From contig CM082597.2 in assembly GCA_040954595.2 (NCBI GenBank), positions 8,204,343 through 8,268,342 on the forward strand: DNA of 64,000 nucleotides, given 5' to 3'. The notes under the pieces are model-generated. The model searched no databases. It had not been told where the DNA came from and saw only the letters and a list, made by a program, of their open reading frames with translations. Positions 13,101-52,965 of the stretch are shown piece by piece (positions within the stretch are counted from its first letter, which is position 1; every line of letters starts with the position of its first letter). The position numbers were made by a program, and so were the translations under genes. This DNA is from Balanoglossus misakiensis. Its lineage: Eukaryota; Animalia; Hemichordata.

Positions 13101-13608
13101 GCCATTGAGAGACACTCTCCATTTTTCTCTGAAAAATCTGTCCTCCTGGGCCTGTGAGTCAAATTTCCCCGTCTCTTGTGATTACGCGTCCGTTGTCAAT
13201 CAGTCGAGCATCTATCCAGAATATTTCTCCTAGTCTAAGAATGACTAGTTCTTTTAAACTGTTTACTATAGCTGTGTGTTTTTCTTCGCTGTCATCTTTA
13301 ACAAGGCGAAGACCTAATCGCTCACAAAAATTGTAGGCAGAAAGATGATCCCTCTGCTTGAAAATCTGTAGGGTGACGCAACCTGGTAATCAAATAATAA
13401 TTTTAAACAATCACAAAATATAAGATATGTGATGAGCTCCTGTTTTGAGGAATTTCAAACATTCTGAAGATGCAAAACCCAAAATTAGTGTCTTACCTGC
13501 TTGCTGCAGTAATGTCATCGACAACATCACGAATGTAGCGACGAGCGTTAACTTCAAAGGTATTTCACGACATTCTTGTAACATCTTACAGCTTCTCCTG
13601 CAAGCCAT
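13101..13608 (-). pseudogene. Lectin-GAIN array copy D: leader exon and first C-type lectin exon only
   Basis: Exon 13608-13497 (MACRRSCKML...LTLVATFVMLSMTLLQQAG) and exon 13382-13101 (CVTLQIF...FCERLGLRLVKDDS...FWIDAR). A 1-bp deletion gives ATT-TGA where paralogs read ILTH. The downstream intron is cut by ISL2EU element 2. Confidence 0.8.
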
Positions 13609-15441: not shown

Positions 15442-18400
15442 TTAAACAACTCCCACCATTGCACTGAAAACAGTCAGGTGATTACACAGACAAAGGGTAG
15501 AATTGAAGTCGGATTTTGGTGACACCTGCAAGATATCAAGCATTAAAAAAACGTGATGACAAAGCATTGGGCGTTTCTTTCCAAGTGAAACAAGATCAAA
15601 CACCTGGTTCACATCCCAGCGTTAATTTAAAAAACGAAAAGCGCCCTCACGTGAATCAGTACATTTTTTACGTTTACGGTATTTTCCTTGTGTCAGTATT
15701 AATTGTAAGATGCAGTACCTTGTTCTGCATTTTAAGTTTTTGTTGCATATTTATCCACAGTACCCACTGAAATCACACTGATTGCCACTTGTCTTAAATT
15801 TCATCAATCGCAAGTACATGGAGCATTTCAACTTTTGCAAAATTTAGAAGAAATTAATTTGTATACCTTACAACCATCATTTTGCCAGTTAGTCTCATCA
15901 AAGTAGCTACATCTGTGTTGAGTAGTGAGAACAGTGATGTCAACCCCATGGGCTGTAGGGAAAAAATATACACAGAACTTCGGTTACATCAACATATTCC
16001 ATATAAAACCAACTGGAGTATCTGTAAGGTAGTGTGCACCCAGAAAATGAAATTCATAAACTTTTGTATTATATTGCTAAAGGCAAAAGAAATACAAAAC
16101 GCATACCAAGTGTTTTGTGTACACCTTTGTATGGAGGCCGATAAAACGGCTTGAGCGCCCGTTTAATATATCACTTGATCAAATTGCAACATACAGTCAC
16201 AATTGGGCATCGACAAGAAGTAAATGTATTACAATCAGTAAGCATATTTAGATGGACCGTTCTAAGCTCGATAGTAAAATTAGAAAATTGGGAACGCTAT
16301 ATTCAAACCGCAAGATCGTAGTATAGCTTTCTACATATGCATGTTCGTTTTTGAAATTAAAAAGAATCATACACAGCAAAAAAGAAGAGAAAACACAACT
16401 ATGTGTTTCAATCAACGATCATTGTGCAATAGTTGTATTAAATATGTAAATACCACAATCTTACCACTAGTAAGGTCAAAGAATATGTAATACAAGCCCG
16501 TCCTGGTGATCTTTGCTTCTGGTAGAAATATGGATGCTGTACACCCTTCAAATACCAAGTCAGTTACATAATGGAAATCACTGTAGCCACCGACGGCGTC
16601 AAGTCTTTCCAGTGACATGTATGCTGTAGTAGTCTCGAAGACCTGCACTGATGCTTCCATGGTGATTTGAAATGCAGAGTAGGCCGATAGCGCCTGCAAC
16701 GAAAATAATGATAAATCGACGCATGATAAACTTCACATAATGAAATATGTGAGGTAACAGATAACACTATGTTTGAAATAACAACAATACCATTAATAGT
16801 CATGTTTGAGTTTTGCCCCGTTGATCAAATGGTTATGTTAAAGACTAGATCAGAAAACATGTAATGATCAGTGAATTTCATATAGTATGTGAAGATTACC
16901 GTTACTGTCAATGCATAGTTAGTGACTCCTTCACTTTCCACGTATACTCCTCTGACGATGCTTTCATTTATAGGTGTCTGATAATTACCAAGCCATACAC
17001 CGAGATCCTCTGATGCATTTTTCACTGAAAATAAAAATGTTATGTTATAACTCAAAGTAATTTCCAAAGTAAATTCACAAATTGGTCATTAATCTACTTA
17101 CGCCCTCCAAGATGAAATTATGAGCGAGTATTTGTATACAAGTATGTTGCTGGGTTTCTAGGTAAAGTTATTTTAAAGAAGGAATTCGCCTTTTCCAGTT
17201 TAAATGGTGCTTCGTTACGACAATGGTGACACAGGACATGCTCCTTGCCCAAATCAATAACCCCTTAAGACAAGGCGTTCCAGAGAGGCAACTTCTTTCC
17301 ACCGAAGATTTCAAGTATTTTTGTGAGTTCCATACGAATGTTAGGATGCCACTTTTGGCCTTAATGAAAACAAACCTTTAATCTCATTACCATCTTCATC
17401 TCTGAATTCTAAGGTCAGTATATCGGTAGTAAAGCCATATGTCTCATTTGCCAATCTGTGGGGATTTACACCCAAACGGAAAATCTAAAGGCAAAAAATT
17501 ACTTTTATTATTCTTGAGCATAATGACACAAGAAGACAGCAACAGGTATTGTACATAAAACCAAATATAATCTTTTAAATATAGTACGGGCTTATTTTTT
17601 TTTTAATGCAACGGATGCATTGACTGAACACAAATATCAGCCTATAGTTCATTCCATTAAAGGGACAAAGTCTCTCTCTCGCTGCCGTTTTTTTCCATTA
17701 ATTATATTTGATACAAGACACCGTTTCTTATTCTACATGTGGATATATAGTGAATGAACGTTCAACCACACACAACTTCCATCCCCCTTATAGACAGGAG
17801 AGTGAATAAAATCGCCAAAAAATAATCGTTCTTTACCATTTATTCATTTTGGGCGAGTTTTTACTCTCATATCATACAAGTGGGATAGAAGTTTTGTGTG
17901 GTTGATCATTGATTCACTATATATCCACGTGTACATTAATAAACAGTGTCTTGTATCAAACATAATTAATGGAAAAAAGGGCAGCGAGAGAGAGACTTCG
18001 TCCCTTTAATGATAGCAAGATCACTGGGACGTCACATTATATTTTAATAGTATACAAATATCAATATACAAGTATAGAGCAGTGTATGATGGAAAATGAA
18101 AGTCATATTTTTCTTCTGATTATAGACGTTGTATACGGACCATTCTGTTCAAGACTGTGTCCCACGACAATTGTGGAAACATACTGTCTGCTGGTGGAAT
18201 ATTGAATCCACTTCCATCTCCAATCATTACATTGGTGTCGCACAAGTCCTGCACAAAGTTCTTTTCCAGATGCAGCACAAGAGAAGAAGTGTTCACGATG
18301 ATTGGTCCATGTCCACAAATAGCCTCGCTCAGTATAAACATTGATAACTGGTCGAATACTTTCGTTATTATCTTTGTCAGGTTATTTGCCTGCCCAGGAT

Positions 18401-21400
18401 TCAGCTTCTCGCTCGGATTGGCGTCAAATAGGGACTGCATTCTGTCTATCACATTTTGCATAACATTCAGTGTTTCTGAAATATATAATTGTTGACATTT
18501 AAAACTTTCTCAGTCTATCGTTATGCATCGGCTCTTGCTTCATACGCCGGTGGAGAATAAGTCTGTCTCATTTCTCGTATCCATCAGCCTTTAGAATTGT
18601 CCAATGCTCAGTTTTTCTGAAAATGACATATTTGACGGTCACCAATTATCTGCATGATTTATTGAAACAAACGAAGTATAGTTGAAACATATCGATACGC
18701 TTAAGGATTGTATGGGTTCTACATTTCTGCGTATGATACACTATCGTATTTACATCATTGGATGATATTTAATGTGGACGGTGTTGAAATGTCTACTGTG
18801 ACGTCACAGATTCATTGTGGTTTTAAATTAAAATGATCACAATACCTTTTGCCAATATAATTCTTCCTTCAAATATGACTCTTTTATTTGAAAGGTCAGA
18901 GGTTAAAGTGTCCACCTTGTCAATTATACTAATACCCTGGCAAAAGAAAATACAGCTTTTTAACTATGTGGCTTCTGTTGTCACAAAATAGTCATATCCC
19001 ATAAAGACATTTAAAGTACGTTTAAGTGGATGTCGCTAACTTGTGGCTTTTTTACACTACAGTGCATTACATCAGTCTCAAATGATTGACACTTTTCTTA
19101 CAACATCTTCTGTTCGTAATTCATCGTCACTTATCTTGACCAAGCTCTCCCGCATCAGAAGTAAGTCATCATCTGAATGTTGCAAATGTAAAAGACAGAT
19201 GATGTGAGAGGTGCCAAAATATTATGTTTTGTATTTACAAAATTAAGAAGGCATTGGCGACTTTAAAATAGTACATGAATATATAACATTTTCAGGGGAC
19301 ATCTTTACTCCGTTGTCAACAAACTTTCATGTCAAGACAGTAATAAATAATTTCAATGTCATGCATTCCTTTATCTGTGTATACTAATGAAATCGGTAAA
19401 AATAATCTCATACAAAAGTCATCGCGAGATCGAACGCTCGAATCATGCAAATATTGTCCATGAAACATTTGAACGGAATTTTCATGTCTACACCGAAGTT
19501 AAGGCGCTGCAATAGTTTCAGTCATTGTTCCTTCTCTTCCTATACACTGCGGGACCATCTTTTGGCCGCCTTGTGGCAGAACAATTCAACTTTTGTTTCA
19601 ATTATCCATTTACTGAAAGCAGCAAGAGATGGTCCATTACACATATAGTCAGGTGGAGATTTGATAAATTGTGACCCCCTCTGGCATTTTTTGGTACAAG
19701 CAAACCAAATATGTTTTTCGGTCAATTCGACTACGCTGATTTCGAAAATGCTTGTTCCCAAAAGATCTTTTTGAGATAAGAGCCTCGTTTTGGCAAATCA
19801 AATATGGCCGCCAAGGATCGCAATTCTCACATGAATAGCATCAAAGAAATGTTCACTTACCTCCTTAAACAATGAAACTAAACTACATGTTTACATCAAC
19901 AACTTTTTTTGGTTGTATAAACACAAAATAGTAACAATTAAACAATAATTATGCAAGCATTTGCATATTGTATGAATAATTCGTTGATTTTTGGCTACCA
20001 AATAATAATAAAGCTAGGTGTAACAGTACATGTACTGAAAACTCACAAGCATTGGAAAAAATTACCTTTTCTTTATTTTAACACCTTGTTCAAAACAATA
20101 CTTCAAGTGTGAAGTTCATTTTGAGATAAGAGCCTCGATGTGGCAATTCAATATGGCCGTCTAAAGCCCTGTAGTGGAGCGGCCAAACCCTAATTTTCAT
20201 AGCGATTGTGCATTTTGTGATAAAAGCACCAAACTTGGCTCAGATGTGTTTTAATGTGTACTAAACAAATTCAGATAGGGAGCCACTAAATATCTGTTGA
20301 TGAGTTTCCATGGCAACCAATTTTTCAAAATGGCCACCAATACAGATAATTTCACCCACCAAATAACATCTGTAAACACCAAGATAAATTTAGATTACTA
20401 TATTTGATACAAGGAACTATGGAAAGAATAATTTGCAAAGATATTATGGTTACTAAACTACTTATAGGGGTAAGTAAGTTATCAAAACACAATTTAAAGG
20501 CACAACTTTTAATCCCTTTCGGATTAATAGGTGCTCCTCTAGAAGTCAAACCATACTGTCTATGGTCAAACATTAGGCTAATTGCGATATTTAACTTGCA
20601 GTACGTAAATTACACATATGAATCACAACAGTTTACCACCTTAGCTAATGATAATCATATAAACAGATCACCGATATATTCGAATTGCACACGGATGTGG
20701 GCTTGGCTTACTCGTGACTGGTAAAATTTCCTTATCAACTTTGTGACGATATTCTGTGATATAGCATAATTGTATGTACTTGTAATTGTCTTTCTAGAGT
20801 TTACGCCCTCGGTGGTGAGATTTAGTATATTGAATACGTGTGTTTTAGTAGCTTGGGGAGTCTTGAGGACCACCTGGTCTGACTACTTCCTAGGGGATTT
20901 TGATTTGATGGCAGCCATAGCGTTTGACGTGTATGATTTTGGATCCATAGACATCCTCCAACCATGTGAGTTTTGACTATCACTTTTCATCTCAACCTGT
21001 GGTATGTTTTAATAACCCAACACACTACACTGAATTGATGTCGAAATGTTTTGAAATTGGGCGTTTAGCCGTATGGAACTTTGATCTGTCAATGGACATT
21101 GCTGGTGTGGAATGAATGTGCGGTGACGTCTCGGTGTACTTTGGCAAGTGCACGAAGAGTATCTGCGTCGCGGTCAAGTCGGACAGGAGGAAGACCTGGA
21201 TGAATTACCAGACTCCACATGCATGCCAACGAGGACGATGTTTGTCGGACTTTATTTATTAGATTCAAGTTAAGTTAAGATAAGTTAAGATTGTAACGGA
21301 TTATTTTCATAAGTTTGACCACGTGGCGTTTTGATTGTCATGTCTGTATATGGTACTTTGATGTACGAGTAATATTTTCATGATTAGTAATTAAATCCCC

Positions 21401-24400
21401 AGGTGGAATATATTTTCGTAGATTTGATCGTTCGATTCGATTTGTCTAGTTCACGTATAGCCGTCGATGCGTGACAACTTGATAGGAGAGTCCACTGCCC
21501 GAAATAGACGTTGATCCAAACTGAGTCCGCGGTCGTCACGTTTATTGGTCGACAGACATAGGGCCTCAAACGCAATGCAATCTAAATGGACCCCGGGTAA
21601 CGAACCACGCGGCTTTGTTTCGACCACAATCGCCACCGCAGCGTTGACAACGATTTTTCGGGGCGTTGATGTTTGTCAAAATGCCATAGGAAATTAAAGA
21701 AACTTAAGTCAAATTGCTGAAACGTTAATAATCGACCATATGTCTTGATACTTTAGATCATGTATCAGTTCCACTCCAGCAATTTTGGCGACTGTTAACC
21801 GAGTTGACCAAAAGATAAATGGTGTCTATGATTCCAAACTCATAAAAATTACACCGGAGGACACAACATTATTTTATTTGTCGAGAATAGTGTCCATCAT
21901 GCCATAAATATTGTCAAAAATGTGTGTTAATTATAGAAACCCAACTAAATATACAAGCAGTTGACCTTTAGATTGGTAAATGGAAAAACAGGTCTTATTG
22001 CAATTTTCTGGGATTAGGTGCCCCAAGGCTCCCAACAAGTCACTTGGAATGTACTTCCATTCTAATATCTCAATGTGTAAAGATCTGACTTTGCAAGAGA
22101 TATTACGGAAAACTTAATTTCATTTAATAGCATGAAGTAAGCGAAATCTTACTCTTTACAGAAAAGCTGTGATCCTGAAGACTTTTGGTGTTTTGAAGCT
22201 TATTTTCACTTTATCATTTTATTCTTTGATTTTGGGGGTTCAAAAATACACAAAATAACATGTCAAAATAGAACTGCTGACTATCATCAAGGTGCGATTA
22301 AAATTATCGATAACATGAGCAATACAAAGCACTTCAAGCGACTTCATCAAAACGCTTTCCGAAGGACAAGTATTGGATGAAAAGTTTGAAACGGATTTTG
22401 ATTTTGATTCCTAACATCTATCTATGTACATGCACCCTAGACATAGTTTGTTTCTATAGTAACTTTAACAAACCAATCGACTGTCATGATACTGGCTTTC
22501 TGCCTCCATTTTATGGGGAAGTGATTCATTATTTGCATGAATCATTTGATGAAGATAAAATAGAAAAGCTGTATTCTGCACTGATTCAAACTGGTCAGAT
22601 CAATTTATAAGGTTGAGAAACAAGATGCCGTTTTTTCCTGGGTTGACTAAATTTGGAATTTTGTTCATCAAAGATATTTTTTATGGGGAAAATAACGAAT
22701 CAACTGAGCTTTACTTGTTAAACTTTTATCACAAAATGCCCAAATGTTACGAAAATTTTGTTTATGCCAGGCCACTCTTATAATATATATATATGGTTAT
22801 ACAGTGTTTTAACTAAGTTTGTTGTAACCGGGGTTATTACCAAACTTGAATTTCTTTAGCGACTGAATCTAGATCCTGTATTTACCCCTATAACTAGTTT
22901 AGTGTTGATATATATTTTGAAAATTACTCTTTGAGCAGTTTCTTGTTTCAAATATTGTAATATGAATTTATTGTGGTGTTTTATAATTCTTATTTTGTGG
23001 GTGAGATTATCTGTATTGGCGGCCATTTTGAAAAAATGAAAAAAATGGTTGCCATGGAAACTCATCAACAGATATTGTGGCTCGCTATCTGAATTTGTTT
23101 AGTACACATTAACGCACATCTGAGCCAAGTACGACACCCAAGTGGATTAAACATACATGTATATATGTTGCCTCACTGACACAATCTTCACTTTTCACAC
23201 AGTATCATATATAAAAACGTAATAAAAATACACATTACTCTTTACTTATGAAGAGAAATTGTTGTTAGAGACCGGGTTTCAAAAAAAACACCGAGGACGT
23301 CGGGCCATCAGTATGCATTCAACGTCTTATAACTAAGCATGAATATACGGTGCTGGCATAATGTGAGTGTGGCCATACGATGCTTTCGCTATTAATGAAC
23401 AACTTGTACGTTAACAAATGCCAGTTTTGTTGGCAAAAAGTATGTTTTTGGCTTTTCACAACATTGAACATACATTCATAGTTCAATAACTTGTGAATTG
23501 TGGACCTAAACGTTCATACGTTCAATGTTCTGGTGTTTTTTAACGGAGCGATCGGTCACGATGTTACCAACGAGCATGTACAGTCTAAACTAAATCGTCG
23601 TTGTGTATGTTTATTTGTTTGTTTTTGTTGTTTTTTACATACAAATATGAAAAGTTTCATTTCAGTTATTCATTAAAATGCAAACATTTGCCAAAAAAAC
23701 ATGTGAATAGACACCTCACAGGCCATAGTTGTATCATTAGCTTTCAGTTGTCAATTTTAGCATGACATCATGACAAATTAAGCTAATTTTGCATATTTTC
23801 CATGCTGCACCTTGTCTGACAAGGTAAACGATTGCATATTTGAATTCCTTGACCCTGAAAACATTGGAATAGACACCTCACTTAACACCGCTGGCTCTCT
23901 TTTGTAGACCATTGATTTTAGATGGCGCGTCGCCTAATTAACATAAATTAGCATTTTTACCAATTCACCAAATGTTTCTAAATTAAAACAATTGTGTAAA
24001 AATATTTAAATGATATAAGAATATGATTTCAATAGACTATTATGGTGTTGACCTGTGATATTGCACCATAATGGCTACAAACAGCGTTTTCTTTTAGGTA
24101 TTTTGAAATTATGACGTCACAAATTAATTTGCCATTTTCGACATGAAAACGTGAAAAGAATTTTTGGGAACAGGCAAATTCGAAATCAGCGTATTCGAAA
24201 TATCCAAAAACAACTTGTTCCCAGCTTGTACCAAAAAATGCCTGACATGCTTTTAAAATGCTCATTTTCTGAAATTTCCACCTAACTAATACGGGCATTT
24301 CCAATGTGACTCCCTTCCAACGCGGATAAATGTAATTACCATGTGTATGCATTTGTCGATTTTCCATGTATCATGGCATATGTTGAATGTATACACACCA

Positions 24401-27376
24401 CAGAACTACACAGGTTGTCAACTATGCAGGAAAGGCTGATGTCCCAACTACTTACTTTTATCCTCGCAAATAACCCTTTGAAGTTCTCTGCAGTTTTTAG
24501 TGTGCCAACTGAATAATCTCTCAGTGTCACATCTGTATAAGAAAGTATTTTTAAGACTTGTACAATGATTACTGTACAGAGTCAATAGTGATCTCTATAG
24601 AATGTGGGTTGGTCATAAGGCCACATTTTGCGTTATTTGAATAAAATCATTAACCATGAAGCATACCCTGGCTTAGTTTTCCAAAAATCGTTCAATATAA
24701 AAACTCAATCTTGACATGGGCAGGGTTCCGATTACTTTCTTACATCCACTGTCTTTCATGTTGTAGGGAACATGTTGGAATTGTAATGCAATCAGCGTTA
24801 GCTGTAAAGTATCATTCTCAAATTGTGCTTTGCAATTCAGACGACATGGCAGATTAAGTTGACAATATACCAGAAATAGTGCAAAATACTGTTATTTTAA
24901 CAGAGTGCAACCTTTAGGATAAGAAACACGTGTTCTAACAAGCATACACACATTTAACTGCCATCATTTCTCCAATGTAATCTCCCAAATTCCCACGCTT
25001 ATGACAACTAGTCAAAATTATTAAAGAAATGGAAAAACATGAATACGGTTCTAGCAACGCGGAAATCAGCGTGAACAAAGAGTGACTCGCTCTGCGTAAA
25101 TGCACAATCCGACTTCAATAGCCTGGTTGGTCGAAAAAGGCGGTTGTTCCAATAGTAAACCACTGGCTGTCTTGACATTGCCATCCGCTGTGATGATAGC
25201 ATCAATCCATACCTCCTCCACCAATGGAACGCCGTAACAGTACTGGCCATAAGCCCATACGGTTGTGTCGGTTAGAAGACGTAATCCATACTTTTCACAT
25301 ACTTGGTATGCATCCATCGCGGTCACCCCGAAACTCGTAGTTACGTCGAAAGAAGCTGCAACTGAGATTAACGTTTATTTATTTCCCTTAAAATCCCCTA
25401 GAGCTGCCACTTTTTGCATTATTTTCATTATTTTATTTTCCAACTTAAATTGATCCATCTCAATAAGCCTACTGATAGGTATACATGAACACCTTATCGA
25501 TGCCCGATTGTGACTGCATGTTGCAATTTTGAACACGCCATGTATTAAACAGTTGCCGCACCGATTTAATTAGCCTCCACACAAATAGTACGCAGCTATC
25601 CTGGTATGCGTCGCCAAGAGATGACAAACTGATGCAATTGCAGGTAATACGGCATGGTGAGGATTTTAGAGGATAGGGAATATATTTGAAGTATTTTACT
25701 GCGGAAATAATGTGAAATTTGGCAACTATAGGGGCCTTCAAATGAATGTCTATAATGATTTGTTGTCTCTCAGTAAGCGTTTATTTGTCGTCTGTATTTA
25801 ACAAAAACGGCAAAAAACACCGATAAGTATCTACATATATTTCGTAAATAAACCAAAAACACGTTGTATCAATTTAAGAAGGTGATTGTTTCATATACAT
25901 AAAGAGGCAAATGTTATGAAAATACATAAATTAAAAACGTGTCTTTCCACTTGAACAAACAAAGATAGGTCGATCAGTCATAAGGAAAAGTATGAACTAA
26001 GTGTCAAAGAATTAATTGAACTAGAACTTACTCGCATCTTCACACAGAGCCACCGTTTGAAGGCCGAAGGTGCCGTTCGTGCCACATCTAATATTTTTCC
26101 ATGCGCCATTCCTGGGAATTGAAACGTAAAGTAATTATATGTTTTCTCCACTCATTAACGCCAATCAACCATCAAACAACAATGGAGAATTCAATCCATG
26201 CACATAATCTTAAATTGACAGAAACATGAGATAAATTTGTTAGATTGTTGTACCACATTTTGCAGAGCAATCTGGCCATACCTCACAGTTTCCGATTGAA
26301 ATTTTCCATAAAAAGGAGCCATGTGTACTCAATTACAAAAGACATCAAATTGTGATCCGAAGATATTGTCCATTGTAACATCTGCATGTCTTTAAATTGT
26401 CAATAAACTCTGTCCCGACTGATTTTCCATTCTGAGATTCTGCGCATGATACAGAATGATTGCTTCAAGTTTAGCTGTATTATAATGAGCACAAAAACAC
26501 ACATTTTTTTCATATTATAATATTATAATAGTTTCAAAACGCTCAACTCACCACAGTGAGAGACACTCTCCATCATACTCTGGAGAAAGTGTACCCCAGT
26601 TCTTGTGAGTCAAAATGTCCCCGTCTCTTGTGACTGCGCGTTCGTTGTCAATCACACGAGCATCTATCCAGTATATAACGGCTGAACTTTGTCGTTCTTC
26701 TAAAATGTTTACAATAGCTGCATGTTTTTCTTCGCTGTCATCTTTAACAAGGCGAAGACCTAATCGCTCACAAAAAATGTAGGCAGAAGAGTGATCAATC
26801 GGCCTGAAAACGTGGTAGGTGACGCAACCTGGAAATAAAATCGTTATTCTTATGACAGTCAGTTTAAACAATCACAAAATAATAAGATTCATGCGCTCCT
26901 GTTTTCAGGCCTAGGTAAGAAATATCAGCAAAGCGGCGAATCTACACAGTCCAGATGGAAAGAAAGGCTGTCAAGCAGCGAAATCGAGATAATTTAGCTG
27001 CGCAAGGGGTTTGTCAAGCAGCAACACCTAGATAGTTTAGCCGCAATTGCCGGGTTTTTTCCCGAAATTCCGTGGGATTTCAAAATGGCGATCAGGAGTA
27101 CAAACACTCGCTAACTATCAGTTTTTCCTGATATTATGTGTTTAAAAGCAAAATTTCGGAATAAACTTTTGAAGAAGATAGAAAAAAAAAACATCGGAGC
27201 ACGGACACGTCTCTAGCTGATATTTCTTACCTAGGCCTGGTTTTGAGGAATTAAAATGTCTTACCTGCTTGCTGCAGTAATGTCACCGACAGAATGACGA
27301 ATGTAGGGATGAGCGTTAACTTTAAGGGTATTTCACGACAATGTCGCAACATTTTACAGCTTCTCAGGCAAGTCAT
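15442..27376 (-). CDS. Lectin-GAIN array copy C: putative secreted protein, leader + 2 C-type lectin domains + polycystin-like GAIN/GPS, no TM region (~646 aa, 13 exons)
   Basis: Exons 27376-27265, 26828-26552, 26111-26032, 25355-25091 (GC donor), 24532-24456, 19172-19102, 18936-18846, 18475-18141, 17484-17376, 17024-16900, 16693-16465, 15952-15867, 15525-15442. Phases are compatible and the frame is open. CTL motifs: FCERLGLRLV, YWIDA, W..IRC...LCE. GAIN-like: NPH...ILTLEFRDEDGNEIKVKN. GPS: CSYFDETNWQNDGCK-VSPKSDFNSTLCLCNHLTVF. Confidence 0.82.
17661..18005. mobile_element. Kolobok-like foldback MITE, TTAA TSD
   Basis: TTAA|AGGGACAAAGTCTCTCTCTCGCTGCC ... GGCAGCGAGAGAGAGACTTCGTCCCT|TTAA with long inverted arms. 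It is absent from the paralogous intron near 42.4 kb. Confidence 0.85.
19646..24288. mobile_element. Academ-like non-autonomous DNA transposon (4643 bp), 3-bp ATA TSD, with nested repeats
   Basis: Ends TAGTCAGGTGGAGATTT / AAATTTCCACCTAACTA with ATA on both sides. The empty site CATTACACATACGGGCATTT is present in copy A (~44368-44387). TAG..CTA ends with a 3-4 bp TSD fit Academ. Confidence 0.82.
26906..27239. mobile_element. hAT-like MITE with 5-bp GTTTT TSD, rearranged copy
   Basis: CAGGCCTAGGTAAGAAATATCAGC...GCTGATATTTCTTACCTAGGCCTG flanked by GTTTT. The empty site CTGTTTTGAGG is seen in copies A and D. Confidence 0.82.
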
Positions 27377-28927
27377 GGTTGCGAGTTGTGCGGCTAATCT
27401 GCGATCAACCTGTATATTAAAAGCTTGATAAGTTATGCGTGTTTTGCAAAGAATTGTAACTACTGGTTGTGTGAGCCAAGCACCATGGAGACGCTATGCC
27501 TTCGGGTTGTTTGGAACTGGAACGTTGCTGCGTCAATTGCCCCGCCCCTACACCTTTCTCAAGATAACAAGGAGAGAGTCTTTGAGCATGTACACACACC
27601 AACTGCTGAAGGACATTAAAAGTGTACAGGGGACTTGAGAAATTATTATGTTTTGTAAAGAATAGCAACCACCGCAGAGAGCATGGGATAAATGGAGACG
27701 CTATGTCGTGTTCTTTCAATTTTTTGTTAGCAGATACATCCTAGGGGTTGTTAGGGCCAACCAACTGGAACGTTACTGCGTCAATTGTCCCTACCGTCGA
27801 GATAACAAGAAGATAGTCAGTGTGCATGTGCACACGTTACCTGCTGAAGGGCACAATGAAAAATGTAAAGGGATGCATGTTTGAACAATTAAATTCGTTG
27901 GAAATTAAATTTGAAAACAGTATTGCAAATATCTAATGACAAGTTTCACTGGTCTATTGTTTAAATCAAGGAAATACGTACGTGTAAATATCAACTTTAA
28001 TTCCTCAACTGTTTCACCCAACTAATGGATTTTCGGCTTATTGTCCTGCAAATATACATTTATCTTGAGTGTACATGTGATATATATTTAATGTCTTGCC
28101 TTTCATGCATTGAGCACACCAATGATAATGCTACAATGCGGTTTCCCAGAGGTTAATCCTCCGGTTAGGGTCCCTGGAGTAGATCTTAAGAGAGTGGCTT
28201 TAATTTATTTATGGTCACATTTTTATTCTCAAATTCTGCAGTTCTAAAAATACAATTTGTAATATTCTACCGCCTCTCATGTCATCTGCATTTAACATTT
28301 ACATTATTCAGATATTGAATGACTTCTGCTGCTGCGGGATATGTTGCTGAAGACATATGCGAGTATGAATTCAGCACATCTGGTATACAAAAGTATCTGC
28401 AAAATTTACCCAAATACGACATACACCCCTCCTTAATATCGACATTCCCAAAATCGATCGTCTCCCACTACGTGAGGAATGCAACATTTTTAAATGCTTT
28501 CGACGAATGTGGCGATGATCGTTAACGTCAAAGGGATTTCACGACAACATTGTAACAATTTACGTCTCCTCAGGCAATCCACGGTTGACAAATTTTGCAT
28601 CTGACCCCAATCAATGACAATTTGGCAAATTGTCCCGCACTTATACATTTCCTTTGAGTGTACATGTGATATATATTCAATAACTTGTCTTTAGTGCATT
28701 GTCCACGTCAAAAATAATGCTACAATACGGATTCCCAGAGGTTAACCCATCGGTTAGGTTTCTGAGGTAGAATCTGAAAGAGTGGCTTTAATTTATTTAT
28801 GCAGACATTTCTTATTCAAAATTCGCAATTCTAGAAATCCAATTGTAAGATTTTATCGCCTCTCATGTCATCTACATTTCACATTTGCATTATTCAGATA
28901 ATGAGTCACCAACAAACTTCCACTGCG

Positions 28928-31176: not shown

Positions 31177-32655
31177 TTAAAGTTTAGGCGCTGCAACAGT
31201 TTAAGGGATTGTTACTTCTGTTCCTACATACTGCAGGACCACCTTCTGCTATCTCGTGGCGGAACAGTACAATTTTTGTTTCAATTATCCATTTACCGAA
31301 AGCAGCAAGTAATGGTCCATTATACATTTTGATATTCTTAATGCGACTCTCTTACACGCGGATAAATGTATTTATACCATGCGTAACTATGCATGTGTCG
31401 ACTTTCCATGTATCATGGCATATGTTGAATGTATACATTCCACAAAACTATACACAGGTGGACAACTATGCAGTCTACAGTCTACATTGAACCAACCAAC
31501 ATAACCAATTGTGCCACATCTGTATAACAAAGTATTGTTTAAGACTTGTACAATGATTACTGTACAGTGTCAATAGTGATCTCTACAGAATGCGGGTTGG
31601 ACATAAGGCCACATTTTGCATTATTTGAATAAAATTAGTAATCCTGGCTTAGTTTTCCAAAATCATTCAATATAAAAACTCAAACTTGACATTGACAGTG
31701 TTCCAATTACTTTCTTACATCCACTGTCTTTCATGTTGTAAGGCACATGTTGGAATTGTAATGCAATCAGCGTTAGCTGTAAAGTATCATTCTCAGATTT
31801 TGCTTTGCAATATGCCAGATTAAGTTGATAAAATACCAGAAATAGTGCAAAAATACTGATTATTGCAACCTTTAAGATAAGAAACACGTGTTGCAACAAG
31901 CATACAAACATTTAACTGCTATCGTTTCTCCAATGTAATCTCGCAAGTTCTAACGCCTATGACATCTAGTTAAAGACATGAAAGAAATGGAAAAACATAT
32001 ACTGTTCTAGCAACGCGCAAAATAGCGAACTAAGAGCGACTCACATTACATAAATACATGATCCGACTTCAAAAGTCCGGTTGGGCGCAAAACGCGTGTG
32101 TTCCAATATTAAACCGCCGGCTGTCTTGACATTGCCATCTGCTGTGATGATAGCATCAATCCAGAAGAATGGCCACCGTGAAAGGAATTCACAGTAATGC
32201 TCAAATTTCCATTCAGTTGTGTCGGCTAGAAGACGTAATCCAAACTTTTCACATAGCTGGTATGCATCCACCATGCTTTTCTTGAGTGTGTTAGTTAAGT
32301 CGAAAGAAGCTGCAAATGAGATAAACGTAATTTATTTCCCTTAAAATCCTCTAAAGCTGCCATTTTTTTGCATTATTTTCATGATTTTATTTTCCAACTT
32401 AAATTGGTCCATCTAAATTAGCCTACTGATAGGTATACATAAACACCTTATCGATGCCCGATTGTGACTGCATATTGCAATTTTGAACACGCCATGTATT
32501 AAACAGCTGCCGCACGGATTTAATCAGCCTCCATACAAACAGTACGCAGCTATCGTGGAATGCGTCGCCAAGAGATGACAAACTGATGCAATTGCAGGTA
32601 ATACGGGATAATGGTGAAGATTTTACAGGATAGGGAATATATTTGAAGTGTTTTA

Positions 32656-34017
32656 GGGACCGTTCAGTTTTTACGGGCGGGGGGGGGGGGGTGGCAAAAT
32701 CCAGAGTGGGGGGGTCACTTAAATTTTTAAGTCCAAAAGGGGGGGGGGGTCATCTGTGTTTTTTAAAGGTTTAGGGGGGGGGGGGGTCACATACTATTGC
32801 CACCGAACTTTTACTTTTGAGTCCACAAAATTGCAGTTTTGCGCCCTTTATTTTACACAATTTTCTCATGTGGGAGAGGGAAACCCCCTCACACGCCCAC
32901 CCCCTTCATTCTTCGCCACATTTCGTTTTTTGCTGGTTTATCTAGTGTACCACGGCAGAGTGCCTGCCACCCCAACCCCACTGATGATAATATTTAACAA
33001 AATAAATACACAAAGGAGAATAATTGTTTAAACCATTTCGCAAAACTGATACTTTCGCGCTGCATCTTCTATATACTAGAAGTTTTATAAATGATGTCAT
33101 GACGAAGAAAACGCCAAATCTTCTAACTTTGAGTGGAGTGGCAAAAAGTAAAATTGGTCCTCCCAAACATTGAGATTATTTGCTTTTGAGTTCATAAAAA
33201 TGCAACTTTGAGCTACATATTTTACATATAAATTTTCTAATGTGAGAGGGACACCCCCTCCCACACCCACCCCTCCATTCTTCGCCACATATCATTTAGT
33301 CGCTGGTTTGTCTAGTGTACCAGGGCAAACTACTTGCCACCCGATGCGTACTTTGAGTGGAGTGGCAAAAGTAAAATTGGTCCTCCCAAACATTGAGATA
33401 ATTTGCTTGAGGGGACACCCCCTCCCACGCCCACCCCCTCCATTCTTCGCCACATATCATTTATTCGCTGAATTGTCTAGTGTACCAGGGCAGACTTCTT
33501 GCTACCCCACCCCGATGCTTACTTTTAGTTGAGTGCCAAGATTTAAATTTGTCCTGCCTAACATTGAGTTAATTTGCTTTTGAGTTCATTAAAATGCAAC
33601 TTTGAGCACCGTATTTTACAAAATTTTCTTATGTGGGAGGGGGACACCCCCTCTTGCTTTCTCACGCCCATCCCCGCCACTTTTCTTGTTTTACCAATTC
33701 TAGCAACTATATTGTATTGTCTTATCATTTTAATTTGTCCATAGATTTATTTATTGCAACGATATACAATTATATATTTCAATTACTTTTAAGAAATTTA
33801 AATTGAGGTGTGAGGACCCTCATTCCCTTTATTGAATATAGTGTACATAGGATCAGGACGGCGAATGTTTTCGGCGTGGGGGTCATCATATTTTTGGGTC
33901 TGTCAAAAAGGGGGGGGGGGTCATCATTTTTTGGTCCTGGGTGAAGCGGGGTCGGCCTGATTTTGAAAACCGATGACACAAACTTGCCGCCCCCAGCCGT
34001 AAAAACAGAACGGTCCC
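32656..34017. mobile_element. Harbinger/PIF-like non-autonomous element with G/C-run subterminal regions
   Basis: TTA|GGGACCGTTCAGTTTTTACGG ... CCGTAAAAACAGAACGGTCCC|TAA, with internal duplications. Partial copies lie at ~14290-14840 and ~39190-39390. Confidence 0.78.
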
Positions 34018-35234
34018 TAAGTGTCAAAGAATTAATTGAACTAGAACTTACTCGCATTTTCACACAGAGCTTCCACTTGAGGGCCGAAGGTGCCGTTCAT
34101 GCTACATCTAATATTTATCCATGCGCCATTCCTGGGAATTGAAACGTCAAGTAATTATATGTTATCTGCACTCATTAACGCCGATCAACCAGCAAACAAC
34201 AATGGAGAATTCAATGATCTTAAATTGACAGACAAACGAGATAAATTTGTGAGATTGTTGTACCACATTTTGCAGAGACAGGTTTTTGTTCAACGGTAAA
34301 ATGGACATATCTCACAGTTATCGATTGAATTTTTCCCTAAGGATTTATAGTCGATTCTATTTTCCTATCACGTGACGGATTTTGGCGAATCACAACACAG
34401 TATTAGCATGAGGTATATTATAATGTATACAAAAGTTTTCTGCAATTTGTCCTTAACGGTTGACTAAGATCATGGAGAATAAAGTCTGCATGATCTAAAA
34501 TTGGCAGAAACTTAAATAAATCAGGGTTAGATTGGTGTAACACATTTTGTAGTGAAAGTTTGGTGTTCAACTGTACGGTAAACGATGAGATAAATCTGGA
34601 CATATCTCACAGTTACCGAATTGAATTTTTCCACAAAAGGAGACATGTGTACGCAATTACAAAAGACATCAAATTGTGATCCGAAGATATTGTCCATTGT
34701 AACATCTGCATGTCTTTAAATTGTCAATAAACTCTGTCCCTACTAGATTTCCATTCTGAGATCGCGGGCTTCTGCGCATGACGCATGATGATTGCTTCAA
34801 GTTTAGCTATATTATAATGAGCACAAAAAACACACACTTTTTCAAATTTCAATATAGTTTCAAAACGCTCAACTCACTCCAGTGCGAGACACTCTCCATC
34901 ATACTCTGGCGAAAGTGTACCCCAGTTCTTGTGAGTCAAAATGTCCCCGTCTCTTGTGACTGCGCGTTCGTTGTCAATCAGACGAGCATCTATCCAGTAT
35001 TTAGTGTATAGAAGAAAGCCTCGTTCTTTTAAACTGTTTACTATAGCTGCGTGTTTTTCTTCGCTGTCATCTTTAACAAGGTGAAGACCTAATTGCTCAC
35101 AAAAAATGTAGGCAGAAGGGTGATCCATCGGCCCGAAAACGAGGTAGTTGACGCAACCTGGAAATAAAATCGTTATTCTTATGACAGTCAGTTTAAAAAA
35201 TCACAAAATAATAAGATTCATGTGCTCCTGTTTT

Positions 35235-35758
35235 CAGGCCTAGGTAAGAAATACCAGCAAAGCGGCGAATCTACACCGTCCAGATGAAAAGAAAGGCTGT
35301 CAAGCAGCGAAATCGAGATAATTTAGCTCGCAAGGGGTTTGTCAAGCAGCAACAACTAGATACTCTAGCTGCAATTCCCGGGGTTTTCCCCGAAAGTCCG
35401 TGGGATTTCTTTTCTATCTTCTTCAAAAGTATTGAGAGTTTAACAAAATCGTTTGGCACAACTATTTTTAAATGCACTAGTCCCAGAACGCGCAACTTCT
35501 TATTCCGAAATGTTGCTTTTAAACACATAATATCAGGAAAAACTGACAGTTAGCGAGTGTTTGTACTCCTGATCGCCATTTTGAAATCCAACGGAATTTC
35601 GGGAAAAAACCCGGGAATTGCAGCTAGACTATCTAGGTGTTGCTGCTTGACAAACCCCTTGCGCAGCTAAATTATCTCGATTTCGCTGCTTGACAGCCTT
35701 TCTTTCCATCTAGACGGTGTAGATTCGCCGCTTTGCTGACATTTCTTACCTAGGCCTG
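35235..35758. mobile_element. hAT-like foldback MITE (524 bp), ~170-bp inverted arms, 5-bp GTTTT TSD
   Basis: GTTTT|CAGGCCTAGGTAAGAAA ... TTTCTTACCTAGGCCTG|GTTTT at the same intron position as 26906-27239. Confidence 0.88.
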
Positions 35759-35844
35759 GTTTTGAGGAATTAAAATGTCTTACCTGCTTGCTGCAGTTGT
35801 GTCACCGACAGAATGACGAATGTAGCGATGAGCGTTAACTTTAA

Positions 35845-36420
35845 AGGTCCCATGTCATGCTTTGGAAAGTTTTCATTTTTCCACATCAAAAGCTCACCTA
35901 AGGTACTTGTCTATGCATTGCCTATTGTGTCGGTTCCGAAAAATGTGCGCGAATGCCGGAATTTGCCCCCTTTTTTCATGCCTGTGATCAGGGAGCCACT
36001 TCGCACTCGAGCCAGGCGAAGGTATTTGCATATGGACAAACAAGTACACTACGTCGTAGTGTACCATTCTGCTAACAGTGTGGTGTAATTAGCGGTCCAT
36101 GCGTACTTAAGTCCACAGACAAAGACAAGCTATATAAACAGTGTTCAAAGCAAAGGAATCCCTTGTTTCACATTACGGGCAGAGGATTTGCGAAGGTGTG
36201 AAAGACTATTTGTCCACATCAAGATAAGCCTTCGACTGAACTTCGAAAAGCCGAAAAAACTCGACTGAGTTGGGTTAGGGGTACAAGCCCACCCGCCACT
36301 TTTACTTGCTTGTTATCTAAGCACAAGGGGCAAAACGCATTGCAAGATAGTAACATACGTTAACTTCAAGACCCAAATAGTGATTTTACGCGTGGTTGTA
36401 TAGGGCATGGCATGCGACCT
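35845..36420. mobile_element. Kolobok-like MITE (576 bp), TTAA TSD, inserted in the leader exon of copy B
   Basis: TTAA|AGGTCCCATGTCATGC ... GCATGGCATGCGACCT|TTAA. Removal restores AACTTTAAGGGTATTTCACG as in copy C. Confidence 0.88.
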
Positions 36421-37493
36421 TTAAGGGTATTTCACGACAATCTCGCAACATTTTACAGCTTCTCAGGCAAGTCATGGTTGCGAGTTGTGCGGCCAATCTG
36501 CGATCAACCTATATAATAAAAGCTTGATAAGTTATGCGTGTTTTGCAAAGAATTGTAACTACTGGTTGTGTGAGCAAGGCACCATGGAGACGCTATGCCT
36601 TCGGGTTGTTTGGAACTAGAACGTTGCTGCGTCAATTGCCCCGCCCCTACACCTTTCTCAAGATAACAAGGAGAGAGTATTTGAGCATGTACACACAGGA
36701 TGATCGTTAACGTCAAAGGGATTTCACGACAACATTGTAACAGTTTACGTCTTCTCAGGCAATCCATGGTTGACAAATTTTGCATCTGACCCCAATCAAC
36801 GAAAATTCGGCAAATTGTCCCGCACTTATACATTTCCTTTGAGTGTACAAGTGATATATAACTTTAATAACTTGTCTTTAGTGCATTGTCCACGTCAACA
36901 ATAATGCTACAATACAGATTCCCAGAGGTTAACCCATCGGTTAGGTTTCTTAGGTAGAATCTGAAAGAGTGGCTTTAATTAATTTATGCCGACATTTCTT
37001 ATTCAAAATTCGCAATTCTAGAAATGCGATTGTAAGATTTTATCGCCTGTCATGTCATCTACATTTCACATTTGCATTATTCAGATGATGACTAACTTCC
37101 GCTGCGGGAGATGTCGGTGAAGATAGATATGTCTAGGAATTCAAAACGGCACATAAAGTGGGAAAGTATCTGCAAAATCTACCCAAATACGGCATAGTTT
37201 ATTCCTCAAATATCCATTTTCCAAAAAAATCGATTGTTTGCCATTATGTATAGGTATAGTATGCAAACTTTTCAAAAGTTTTGTAAAGAACCCCATCGAG
37301 AAAAAGCTATTTTCTACAACATCGACAACAACAACAACTCCCCCCTCCTTCCTTCCCTCCCTCCATCCCTCCCAATAGGGAGTCCCTCTCTCCCTCCCAT
37401 CCATCAGAGTATAATCAAATGAAGCGTAATTTGATTCTATGGGAAAATGCGCAATACATACATACGCTTTAATATCAACCAGAATAATCCAGA

Positions 37494-39974: not shown

Positions 39975-42900
39975 CTAAACGTGAAATCGTCCATCAGATT
40001 CAACAACTCCCACCATTGCACTGAAAACAGTCAGGTGATTACACAGACAAAGGGTAGAATTGAAGTCGGACTTTGGTGACACCTGCAAGATATCAAGCAG
40101 AAAAAAACGTGATGACAAAGCATTGGGCGTTTCTTTGCAATTGAAACAAGATCAAACACCTGGTTCACATCCCAGCGTTAATTTAAACAAGGAAAAGCGC
40201 CCTCACGTGAATCAGTACATTTTTTACGTTTACGGTATTTTCCATTTGTCAGTATTAATTGTAAGATGCAGTACCTTGTTCTGCATTTTAAGTTTTTGTT
40301 GCATATTTATCCACAGTACCCACTGAAATCACACTGATTGCCACTTGTCTTAGATTTCATCAATCGCAAGTACATGGAGCATTTCAACTTTTGCAAAATT
40401 TAGAAGAAATTAATTTGTATACCTTACAACCATCATTCTGCCAGTTATTCTCATCAAAGTAGCTACATCTGTGTTGAGTAGTGAGAACAGTGATGTCAAC
40501 CCCATGGGCTGTACGGAAAAAGTATACACAGAACTTCGGTTACATCAACATATTCCATATAAAACCAACTGGAGTGTCTGTAAGGTAGTGTGCACCCAGA
40601 AAATGAAATTCATAAACTTTTGTATTATACTGCTAAAGGCAAATGAAATACAGAACGCATACCACGTGTTTTGTGTACACCTTTGTATGGAGGCCGATTA
40701 AACGGGTTGAGCGCCCGTTTAATATATCACTTGATCAAATCGCACCATACAGTCACAATTGGGCATCGACAAGAAGTAAATGTATTACAATCAGTAAGCA
40801 TATTTAGATAAACATCAGTAAGCATATTTAGATTGACCAATCTAAGCTCGATAGTAAAATTAGAAAATTGGGAACTCTATATTAAAACCGCAAGATCGTA
40901 GCATAACTTTCTACATATGCATGTTCGTTTTTGAAATTAAAAAGAAGCATAAACAGCAAAAAGAAAAGACAAGAAAACACAACTATGTGTTTTAATCAAC
41001 GATCATTGCGCAATAGTTGTTTTAATCATGAAAATATTCCACAATCTTACCTCTGGTAAGGTCAAAGGTTATGTAATACAAGCCCGTCCTGGCGATCTTT
41101 GCTTCTGATAGAAATGTGGATGCTGTACACCCTGCAAATACCAAGTCAGTTACATAATGGAAATCACTGTAGCCACCGACAGCGTCAAGTCTCTCCAGTG
41201 ACACGTGTACTGTAGTAATCTCAAAGATAGGTCCTTGTGCTTCCATGGTGATTTGCATTGCAGAGTATCTCGATAGTGCCTACAACGATGAGAAACCAAT
41301 GCAAAGTGAACTCTACAACAGGTACAAATGATTCTTTTGAGGTAAACCTTGCCTGTGTTTTGAGATGTGCAAGTTCAATTCACATGTTGTGTCATTGGGC
41401 ATCAGACCTCGGAACATGATGACAGAGAGGATGGTGATTGCATGTTACATATGTAAAATATTGCATGCTGAGAAATAAATCCCCATGGTTATTATTTGTG
41501 TGCATTTACATAGGGCTTTACCCCTCCCCCGGCTGACCATCACACCAAGATGGGTGGTTTGATGGTACTTTAGAGTTGCTAACATGCAAAAGTCGGTTAG
41601 GTTCATATAATGTGTGAGGTTTACCGTTACTGTCAATGCGTAGTGAGTGACTCCTTCACTTTCCACGTATACTCCCCTGACGATGCTTTCATTTCTAGGT
41701 GTCTGATAATTACCAAGCCATACGCCGAGATCCTCTGATGCATTTTTCACTGAAAAGGAAAATGTTCTGGGATAATTTAAACTGATGTTAAAACTCCACT
41801 CACAATTTGGCCATTACTCGAGTTCCGCCCCACGATGAAAATATGAGCGAGTATTGTAATACATATCACTGGGTTTCTGTGTAAAGTTGATTAAAAGAAG
41901 ATATGTGCCATTTCTATTTGAGTTTTCACTGGTAATACATTTTATCCACAATATAAAAATTTTCATTATGACACTAGTGATACAGGGAATCCCCAATGCC
42001 CTAGCATATAATATGACCCCTACTGACAAGGAGTTCCAGAAATCACGCTGTTTCCAAAGATTTAAGTATTTTTGCGAGTTCCATGAGAATGTTAGGATGC
42101 CATTGATGGCCTTAATGAAAACCAACCTTTAATCTCATTACCATCTTCATCTCTGAATTCCAGGGTCAGTATATCGGTAGTGAAGCCATGTGTCCTATTT
42201 GCCAATCTGTGAGGATTCCCACCGAATCGGAAAATCTATAAAAAAAAAAAACATCTTAATTATTCCCCGAGCACTTGAACGCATTATAACAACAGAATTG
42301 TACTTTAAACCAAAGATCATAATTAAAAATGTTTATGGACTTATTTTGTAAAAAAAAATGACAATGTTTGCACTAACTCAGCATAATACTGTCTAGTTCA
42401 TTCCCATAATGACTTGACTGGCGGAAGAATCCTAATGACCAAAAGTTAGACAAATATCAATATACAAGAACAAAGCAATGTATGATAGAAAACGAAAGTG
42501 AGATTGTCTTCTTAATTATAGACGTTGTATACAAACCATTCTGTTCAAGACTGTGCCCCGCGACAATTGTGGAAACATACTGTCTGCTGGTGGAATATTG
42601 AATCCACTTCCATCTCCAATCATTACATTGGTGTCGCACAAGTCCTGCACAAAGTTCTTTTCCAGATGAAGCACAAGAGAAGAAGTGTTCACGATGATTG
42701 GTCCATGTCCATAATTAGTCTCGTTCAGTATAAACATTGATAACTGGTGGAATACTTTCGTTGTTATCTTTGTCAGGTGATTTGCCTGCCCGGGTTTCAG
42801 CCTGTCGCTCGGATTGGCGTCAATTAGGGACTGCATTCTGTCTATCACCTTTTGCATGACATTCAGTGTTTCTGAAATTATGTAATTATTGGCATTTAAA

Positions 42901-52412: not shown

Positions 52413-52472
52413 CTAAACGTGGCATCGTCCATCAGATGTGACGATTTCCACAATTGTCTTGAAAGCACTCAG
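52413..52472 (-). pseudogene. Remnant terminal exon of a further lectin-GAIN paralog
   Basis: Reads LSAFKTIVEIVTSDGRCHV*, homologous to LTVFSAMVGVVESDGRFHV*. The flank GCCCCTGTGCTAAACGTG is shared with 15408-15426 and 39966-39983. Confidence 0.7.
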
Positions 52473-52965
52473 TGTTTATTTCGTATTGTGGGTATTTGGA
52501 CTCACTAGCAAGGAATTGTGGGTAGTTGATGTTAAATTCAAGGATAGTAATACAGAACTATACATTTAAAGACTTTCTAACAAAACATATCAGATATATT
52601 CTCATAAGATATATAAAATACTGCTATTCATACACGATATAAAATACATTTTTAGAATACTTGTGTGTATTTGAATACAAGTACATTGGTTAGAATATTA
52701 CCAGTGGTATAAAAAATTTTATATAATTTTTTTTTCTTGACAGCCAAAAAGCTTTGAGAGAATAATTTGTTTAAGGCAAACTGTAGTTAATAAGAAATAA
52801 TTTTGCAAAATACGTTCATGATTTATAAAAGTTACTCCTACTTCATTTGTTTTTACCGTAAAGATCCAAATTGATTGATTGGATATTTCTAGTTTGTAAT
52901 CAATATTGACAAATTGGCTACCATTAATTTTCAGCAACTATTGAGTGTAGTGTTCATCTTCCCAT

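Follow-up and report, generated by a model that had tools for sequence, protein, structure and literature searches.

A tandem array of lectin-GAIN genes in the acorn worm Balanoglossus misakiensis: predicted receptor-like ectodomains that end just past the GPS cleavage site

The stretch of DNA analysed here, referred to below as the window, comprises 64,000 nucleotides of the acorn worm Balanoglossus misakiensis (GenBank assembly GCA_040954595.2, contig CM082597.2, positions 8,204,343 to 8,268,342 of the forward strand), and all coordinates are those of the window. Our subject is a gene on its minus strand, which we call copy A, that encodes a hydrophobic leader, two C-type-lectin-like domains and a further region of about 370 residues that includes a GPS motif, followed by the predicted cleavage site HL↓T (the arrow marks the scissile bond), ten residues and a TAA stop. 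A preliminary description of this DNA had read copy A as a receptor ectodomain of lectin and GAIN domains without a membrane part, and had proposed that its ten-residue tail might be released as a diffusible agonist. The layout stands, as set out below, but that description had missed that the gene belongs to a multigene family and that its GAIN domain is of the PKD1 type.

Exon structure and domains of copy A

Copy A consists of 13 exons that run from 27376 to 15442, total 1941 nt and are phase-compatible, giving 646 amino acids plus stop with neither a stop codon nor a frameshift across the 646 codons. The splice sites show AG at 12 of 12 acceptors and GT at 11 of 12 donors; the remaining one, in intron 4, requires a GC donor (AGA/gcgagt) at a place where the partial paralogue copy C has GT. 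The preliminary description had given the same chain of 13 exons, and the open frame bears it out, with the GC donor absent from its remarks. On a Kyte-Doolittle plot (19-residue mean) hydropathy peaks at 1.97 in the leader (residue 16) and reaches 1.56 at the C-terminus, the leader being the sole strong hydrophobic stretch of the protein.

The first lectin-like domain falls short of the Pfam Lectin_C cut-off (E 0.013), which the corresponding exon of the paralogue copy B reaches, but it matches C-type lectin-domain proteins in the PDB (E 5.9e-12 and 8.4e-6) and carries the signature of the fold, with core cysteines and a WIG-like motif. The second domain gave no Pfam match, and its class is assigned solely from its resemblance to domain 1 (29% over 68 amino acids, E 2e-6). 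C-type lectins that bind sugars in a calcium-dependent manner are recognised by an EPN or QPD motif together with a WND motif. Across residues 1-300 of copy A and of copy B there is no EPN/QPD-type motif, so that by these motifs neither belongs to that class, and glycan binding is therefore unsupported.

The last two exons of copy A contain all the features of a GPS motif, namely the paired cysteines, the tryptophan and the H-L↓T/S site. The last exon, which holds half of the motif, scores 20.9 bits against the Pfam GPS cut-off of 22.5 (E 5e-4), and the GPS region matches GPR126 with an E value of 0.0096. The Pfam check that had been suggested for the spliced protein thus found Lectin_C and GPS where they were expected, but both under the cut-off, and nothing for domain 2.

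Evidence on the fold comes from models of two homologues, P0001 (45% identical to copy A in the GAIN region) and P0034, rather than of the copy A protein itself. The last 360 residues of the P0001 model lie mostly at a predicted local distance difference test score (pLDDT) of 77-95, and they align to the GAIN domain of latrophilin-1 (4DLQ) with Z 18.6 and a root-mean-square deviation of 3.2 over 238 residues; for P0034 the values are Z 17.7, 4.0 and 243 residues. [quoted passage not shown] The GAIN fold that had been posited earlier is borne out at the level of these homologues. Both models hold a separate beta-sandwich within subdomain B (P0001 residues 831-940, P0034 about 520-636), and such an additional sandwich is described as the mark of the PKD1-type GAIN (PMC11697300). 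Judging from these models, the C-terminal 370 or so residues of copy A likely fold as a PKD1-type GAIN domain. The GAIN models also align, with Z 9.8-10.7 over about 210 residues, with the axonemal doublet-microtubule chains 9fqr_Hn and 8glv_AE.

At the predicted cleavage site, copy A has the His, the Thr and a Tyr at the position that stacks on the His, the last assigned by motif. Given that Tyr occupies the stacking position and is tolerated there, as in latrophilin-1, where it supports cleavage (PMC13062082), cleavage at HL↓T is plausible.

Absence of a membrane part at the locus and among relatives

We searched for membrane exons within the limits of the 64-kb window. None of the 48 minus-strand open reading frames of at least 55 amino acids in the 15.4 kb downstream of the copy A stop matched PLAT, seven-transmembrane (7TM) or PKD-channel families; the significant Pfam matches there were the transposon domains THAP, DDE_Tnp_4 and YqaJ. 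Hydrophobic windows (at least 1.9) in open reading frames of at least 25 amino acids occur downstream at the background rate, in 6 of 179 as compared with 56 of 1605 in the whole window. The next gene copy begins 1.8 kb past the stop, and candidate poly(A) signals lie at 15260 and 14899.

A profile of exon 8, built from copies A and B and run without a length limit against 1.84 billion representative sequences, gave 34 matches. Thirty of these were looked up, and comprised 27 RefSeq models from Ptychodera flava, one protein of Glandiceps talaboti and two fragments; 11 further records were added, for a total of 45 related protein records. Pfam families for 7TM, PLAT, channel and REJ domains were found in none of the 34 relatives that were scanned and are listed for none of the other 11, and a hydropathy window of 1.9 or more beyond residue 45 occurs in 0 of the 45. 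Neither copy A nor any of these relatives therefore shows the transmembrane helix that follows the GPS in PKD1-like proteins, accompanied in most of them by PLAT and channel domains, or the 7TM region that follows the GAIN domain in adhesion GPCRs. The earlier observation that no membrane exon precedes the next gene copy is upheld both at the locus and across the relatives.

In 24 of the 45 records the sequence extends to the final Cys-x-Cys of the GPS and ends 0-23 residues past the scissile position, the other 21 stopping earlier in the domain. All 24 are P. flava models; they lie on 12 contigs, include two isoform pairs and so represent about 22 genes, with heads that include Lectin_C, HYR, F5/8C, SRCR, PAN and pentraxin domains. 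With the stop ten codons after HL↓T, an intact copy B and 24 relatives that end alike, the reading of copy A as a receptor-like ectodomain without a membrane part holds, and from sequence comparison the gene is predicted to belong to a multigene acorn-worm family. The closest match is P0001 (P. flava XP_070568693.1), with 45% identity over 364 amino acids in the GAIN region and 33% over 268 in the lectins. In a tree of the last 400 residues (26 rows, midpoint-rooted, without an outgroup), copies A and B fall in a clade of eight (support 100/99) that includes P0001, and all six P. flava rows of that clade end no more than two residues past the cut. P. flava models whose last residues are HL, HLT or HLK include XP_070568693.1, XP_070558929.1, XP_070532992.1 and XP_070535211.1. 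A word-index search among longer proteins scored 0 of 54 candidates with exon 8. With the GAIN alignment it returned 2 of the 7984 candidates that were scored, each of them a P0001 isoform; the latter search spanned 672-2000 residues, which places large membrane-bound relatives outside its reach. A scan of metagenome contigs for the GPS motif gave nine loci, none of which matched the family by tblastn.

The residues after HL↓T number 10 in copy A and 18 in copy B, copy A having TAA where copy B has GAA. Because copy B and the decayed last exon called remnant Z keep the same frame and stop, the habit of ending just past the GPS predates the duplications of the array, as judged from the aligned frames, while the ten-residue length is recent and specific to copy A; it lies inside the family range of 0-23 residues. 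Among the 24 relatives, HL-T/S is kept in 15 and is not intact in 9, and tails have at most two residues in 8 and at least five in 16. The conserved agonist strand T-x-F-x-x-L-M is matched loosely by copies A and B, whose tails fit T-x-F-x-x-hydrophobic-hydrophobic. In the relatives T/S-x-F begins 15 of the 16 tails of five or more residues, but of 13 tails only 1 has a hydrophobic residue at +6 and only 3 have one at +7, and since these positions are not conserved an agonist-type ending is no family trait. The earlier claim of a ten-residue Stachel-like tail is consequently borne out for its start, but its length reflects a nonsense change in one copy.

Two other explanations of the ending were discarded. 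A +1 frameshift hiding a longer tail was rejected in that the alternative frame stops within about 20 codons and the A-B changes are synonymous in the main frame. A glycosylphosphatidylinositol anchor was rejected in that the hydrophobic end is short and overlaps the GPS cysteines, and copy B and the relatives end in polar residues.

The tandem array and its surroundings

Copy A is one member of an array in which a lone last exon (remnant Z) is followed by the complete copy B, the incomplete copy C, the remnant of a leader exon, copy A itself and the disrupted copy D (Table 1), each tandem unit with its own promoter-like region. In copy B all 13 exons are in frame, the donor of intron 4 (45273) having been chosen to keep the frame and scoring -2.0 bits. 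Copies A and B are 49-50% identical in the lectins and 87% in the GAIN domain, and their overall ratio of non-synonymous to synonymous divergence (dN/dS) is 0.70 (Fisher p 0.007). Exons 6-12 are equal in length in the two copies and all 12 introns differ; where shared exons differ in length, they do so by multiples of three (4 of 4, one of them by donor choice). Exons 12-13 show one non-synonymous change in 56 codons.

The 3' ends of A (14606-16702) and B (39187-41288) are 91% identical overall, introns and flank included. From intron 11 on the identity is 95-98%, introns 11 and 12 included, and the introns upstream differ widely. This pattern likely reflects recent gene conversion at the 3' ends. 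Exon 11 is more diverged between A and B than introns 11-12 (28/229 against 36/852, p 3e-5), and positive selection on this exon was considered as a cause, but the proportions of non-synonymous and synonymous differences are equal (0.12) and a conversion boundary explains the divergence equally well.

Exons 1-4 of copy C (32045-36475) are in frame with exons 5-13 of copy A (15442-24532), giving 647 amino acids with one terminal stop, so that copy C could, by this reading of the frames, provide an alternative 5' lectin cassette for the GAIN exons of copy A. The lectin domains of A and C have dN/dS of 1.16 and 1.38, not different from 1. The element that splits exon 1 of copy C (577 bp, 35845-36421, minus strand), which we take to be Kolobok-like, ends in short inverted repeats and has duplicated a target of the TTAA type. 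It starts AG/GT, the duplicated target supplying the AG, and exact splicing would restore the frame, as with an introner-like insertion.

Table 1. Features of copy A and of the other members of the array.
Feature	Position	Strand	Remarks
Copy A exons 1-5	27376-27265, 26828-26552, 26111-26032, 25355-25091, 24532-24456	minus	
Copy A exons 6-8	19172-19102, 18936-18846, 18475-18141	minus	
Copy A exons 9-13	17484-17376, 17024-16900, 16693-16465, 15952-15867, 15525-15442	minus	
Leader exon	27265..27376	minus	exon 1 of copy A, with the start codon; its hydrophobic leader is a predicted signal peptide
C-type-lectin-like domain 1	26032..26828	minus	copy A exons 2-3; without EPN/QPD motif
Divergent C-type-lectin-like domain 2	24456..25355	minus	copy A exons 4-5; GC donor in intron 4
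Predicted helical subdomain A of GAIN, with the beginning of subdomain B	18141..19172	minus	copy A exons 6-8; helices in model of closest homologue
Predicted GAIN subdomain B with extra PKD1-type beta-sandwich	16465..17484	minus	copy A exons 9-11; sandwich in exons 10-11
GPS motif	15442..15952	minus	copy A exons 12-13; His-Leu 15480-15475, predicted cut before Thr at 15474, 10-codon tail, TAA 15444-15442
Candidate cryptic donor ATG/GTGGGA	15451..15459	minus	in copy A last exon; phase 0; shared with copy B
Copy D	13101..13608	minus	leader and lectin-1 exon, in-frame stop, then transposon interruption
Leader-exon remnant	28502..28587	minus	79% over 86 nt
Copy C	31460..36475	minus	limited to promoter, leader and lectin exons; a 577-bp inverted-repeat element splits exon 1
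Copy B	39975..51011	minus	intact paralogue of 13 exons, encoding 647 aa; tail of 18 residues past HL↓T
Remnant Z	52392..52510	minus	decayed last exon; 18-codon tail frame and stop position as copy B

The transposon that interrupts copy D (7329-12695) has 113-bp inverted repeats that are 96% alike, and holds open reading frames for DDE_Tnp_4 on the plus strand (7611-8918) and for a YqaJ-like exonuclease on the minus strand (9816-10646). A second element (3013-6772) carries THAP, HTH_Tnp_4 and DDE_Tnp_4 frames on the minus strand and a YqaJ-like frame on the plus strand (3812-4420), with short tandem repeats flanking it at 850-988 and 2266-2512. A GC-rich minisatellite lies in intron 3 of copy B (46355-47796; 28 copies, with a period of about 50/103); two of its minus-strand frames, 565 and 585 codons long, are free of stops and match no significant Pfam family. 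The window also has a 1.07-kb repeat in inverted orientation (37494-38558 and 52965-54026, 96% identity) and a 689-bp direct repeat (57240-57928 and 60118-60805).

A probable secreted recognition protein and its alternatives

Three known systems resemble copy A. PKD1-like proteins (PKD1L2, PKD1L3) and the sea-urchin REJ proteins (SpREJ1-3) share with it C-type lectin domains ahead of a GAIN/GPS region with HL↓T and the extra GAIN sandwich, and several relatives bear RefSeq names such as 'polycystin-1-like protein 2/3' and 'sperm receptor for egg jelly-like'. In contrast to them, the copy A family lacks a transmembrane helix, PLAT and channel past the GPS, no Pfam REJ domain occurs in the 34 scanned relatives, and in copy A only about 370 residues separate the second lectin from the stop. 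In the available text of PMC1934368, SpREJ1 has one transmembrane helix, and SpREJ10, the only member without one, also lacks a GPS. The ectodomains of adhesion GPCRs such as latrophilin, BAI and GPR126, and splice forms of such receptors that lack the 7TM region, of which Cirl and LAT-1 variants are reported (PMC13197933), share the GAIN core fold and GPS motif; those, however, are isoforms of receptor genes, whereas here whole genes on many chromosomes are without a membrane part and the GAIN domain carries the PKD1-type sandwich. The shed N-terminal fragment of polycystin-1 (PC1) is likewise a soluble, lectin-bearing, GAIN-ended ectodomain, which activates PC1/PC2 and has been proposed as a ligand of polycystin complexes (PMC7728438), but it is cleaved from a membrane receptor, while the genes here form a stand-alone family with shuffled heads. 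By analogy, the copy A product may work like such a shed PKD1/REJ ectodomain (PMC7728438, PMC9672506).

Nearest to copy A is P0001, with the same type of leader, two lectin-like domains, GAIN domain, end at the GPS and lack of a transmembrane segment; it differs in having four HYR repeats between lectins and GAIN, in ending one residue past HL and in bearing an automatic name only. A 2025 survey places GAIN domains only in adhesion GPCRs and PKD1-like proteins (PMC11697300), and a mention of further non-holozoan genes with GAIN domains does not include this layout (PMC12716839). In the open literature we found no family of GAIN-ended secreted proteins, in agreement with the preliminary description, although hemichordate genome supplements and subscription papers, which lay outside this search, may mention it.

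We think it on balance probable that the product of copy A descends from a PKD1-like receptor and is secreted to serve in recognition, with its GAIN domain acting as a stable stalk, its tail as a structural strand and its variable heads as the binding part; the family likely arose when a PKD1-like/REJ receptor lost everything past its cleavage site. If copy A is expressed, its leader would direct the protein into the secretory path, and the C-terminal 370 or so residues would, as in the homologue models, fold as a PKD1-type GAIN. Because the His, the Thr and a stacking aromatic residue are present, slow self-cleavage at HL↓T is probable, after which the short tail would stay clamped in the fold as a structural strand, given that nothing anchors it for force to pull on. 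The exchangeable, fast-diverging head would then be the working part and might bind surfaces of microbes, gametes, mucus or matrix, or alternatively polycystin-type receptors, in the manner of the shed PC1 ectodomain. The protein would in effect amount to a shed ectodomain that is encoded as such by its gene, and tandem birth and death would have multiplied it.

Several observations weigh against this reading. All of the relatives are predicted gene models, and the annotation of the family is imperfect, as 21 of the 45 records do not extend as far as the GPS and some of these have endings of the intron-read-through type. The lectin heads of the homologue models lie below pLDDT 50 and so lack a confident model, and in the P0034 model the tail falls below 50 from residue 672 and is undocked, in an alignment most of whose rows have no tail. 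The PKD1-type origin is argued from fold topology and RefSeq names, with a tree that holds no membrane-bound relatives. Within the GAIN domain alone the A-B dN/dS of 0.69 is not significantly below 1 (p 0.16), and the contrast in identity between lectins and GAIN may reflect recent homogenisation of the 3' ends. Moreover, the last exon holds the sequence ATG/GTGGGA, which by a matrix trained on the window's own donors scores 6.2 bits, the array's 30 donors spanning -2.0 to 10.6; and the weak GC donor and shortened tail may indicate that copy A is decaying.

That last point bears on the possibility that copy A is a decaying duplicate of a real family that yields no working protein, which its GC donor where copy C has GT, its TAA where copy B has GAA, its partial or broken neighbours (C, D, Z and the 28.5-kb remnant) and the lectin dN/dS against copy C would all accommodate. 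We regard it as rather improbable, however, in view of 646 codons without stop or frameshift, of exons 6-12 that match B in length while all 12 introns differ, of the single non-synonymous change in the 56 codons of exons 12-13, and of a tail within the family range. The donor-like site was the basis of a further proposal, in which each ectodomain cassette splices from ATG/GTGGGA to shared transmembrane exons beyond the array, much as in a clustered-cassette locus such as protocadherin. The site does score like a real donor, in phase 0 and in both A and B, each unit has its promoter-like region, copy C exons 1-4 join copy A exons 5-13 in frame, and our scan ends at the window edge. Nonetheless, remnant Z loses the donor (-0.8) yet keeps the stop and the frame of the tail, the two changes that separate A from B in the stretch from one stop position to the other are both synonymous in the tail frame, the 15 kb downstream hold only transposon families, and 0 of the 45 related records have a membrane segment despite their location on many chromosomes. 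The relatives' tails share no donor either: the best position for a GTA/GTG donor fits 4 of 15 long tails of the T/S-x-F kind, evidence against a single systematic read-through. Distant membrane exons are therefore distinctly unlikely. An N-terminal tether, with the leader as an uncleaved type II anchor and the GAIN domain facing outward, would be compatible with the rest of a secreted-ectodomain interpretation, and in copies A-D 19 basic, Cys-rich residues precede the hydrophobic stretch while the residues after it fit the signal-peptidase rule poorly; but with a hydrophobic core of about 15 residues that in copy C includes a Gln, and with ordinary short leaders, as judged by eye, in several relatives, we think it rather doubtful.

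The agonist proposal of the preliminary description, in which ligand (there, glycan) binding frees the ten-residue tail to act on adhesion GPCRs or polycystins, is very unlikely. The tails of A and B do fit the hydrophobic pattern, and HL↓T with a Tyr at the stacking position (by motif) is compatible with cleavage as in latrophilin-1 (PMC13062082), but the tail differs in length between A and B (10 and 18 residues), is not conserved past T/S-x-F in the relatives, and is nearly absent in 8 of 24, and HL-T/S is not intact in 9 of 24. Dissociation of an unforced GAIN domain is very slow, about 0.0011 per hour (10.1101/2023.01.12.523854), a freed peptide would have no anchor to pull against, and the heads have no EPN/QPD motif. 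Membrane proximity raises GAIN cleavage in several receptors, and in one of them greater distance from the membrane of the endoplasmic reticulum cut cleavage from 45% to 10% (PMC12488864).

Alternatively, soluble GAIN domains with an empty or exchangeable last-strand groove might capture in trans the exposed stalks of PKD1-like or adhesion-GPCR fragments, as decoys, a role that the preliminary description had also raised, or as interchangeable recognition heads of a split receptor. Eight of the 24 GPS-ending records stop no more than two residues past the cut, as an N-terminal fragment would after its release, and so do all six P. flava rows in the clade of copies A and B; the heads of the relatives are diverse, and GAIN fragments can rebind after dissociation (10.1101/2023.01.12.523854). 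On the other hand, the tails of A and B should fill their own grooves, all eight short ends are compatible too with read-through of a phase-2 GTAA/GTGA donor (as do 19 of the 24 ends overall), rebinding in that study was slow, and no partner gene was identified, so that we consider trans-docking unlikely. It is slightly less likely again that in acorn worms a polycystin-type receptor has been divided into separate genes at the point where it is cleaved, with a large family of secreted heads that dock in trans on membrane stalks; if so, one signalling body would gain many interchangeable sensors, some of whose heads end exactly at the cut.

On our preferred reading, that of a secreted recognition protein, the family would have a wider use. 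In adhesion GPCRs and PKD1-like proteins a membrane part carries the GAIN domain, and entire genes that end where cleavage would occur amount to a natural experiment on points debated in the field: what role a released ectodomain has of its own, how stable a GAIN domain is without its last strand, and whether cleavage needs the membrane. The family's members offer a ready series in which the tail is full, partial or apparently missing and the catalytic His is present or absent. The structure of a PKD1-type GAIN is stated to be unsolved in the available text of PMC11697300, and the members of this family would be small soluble candidates for it.

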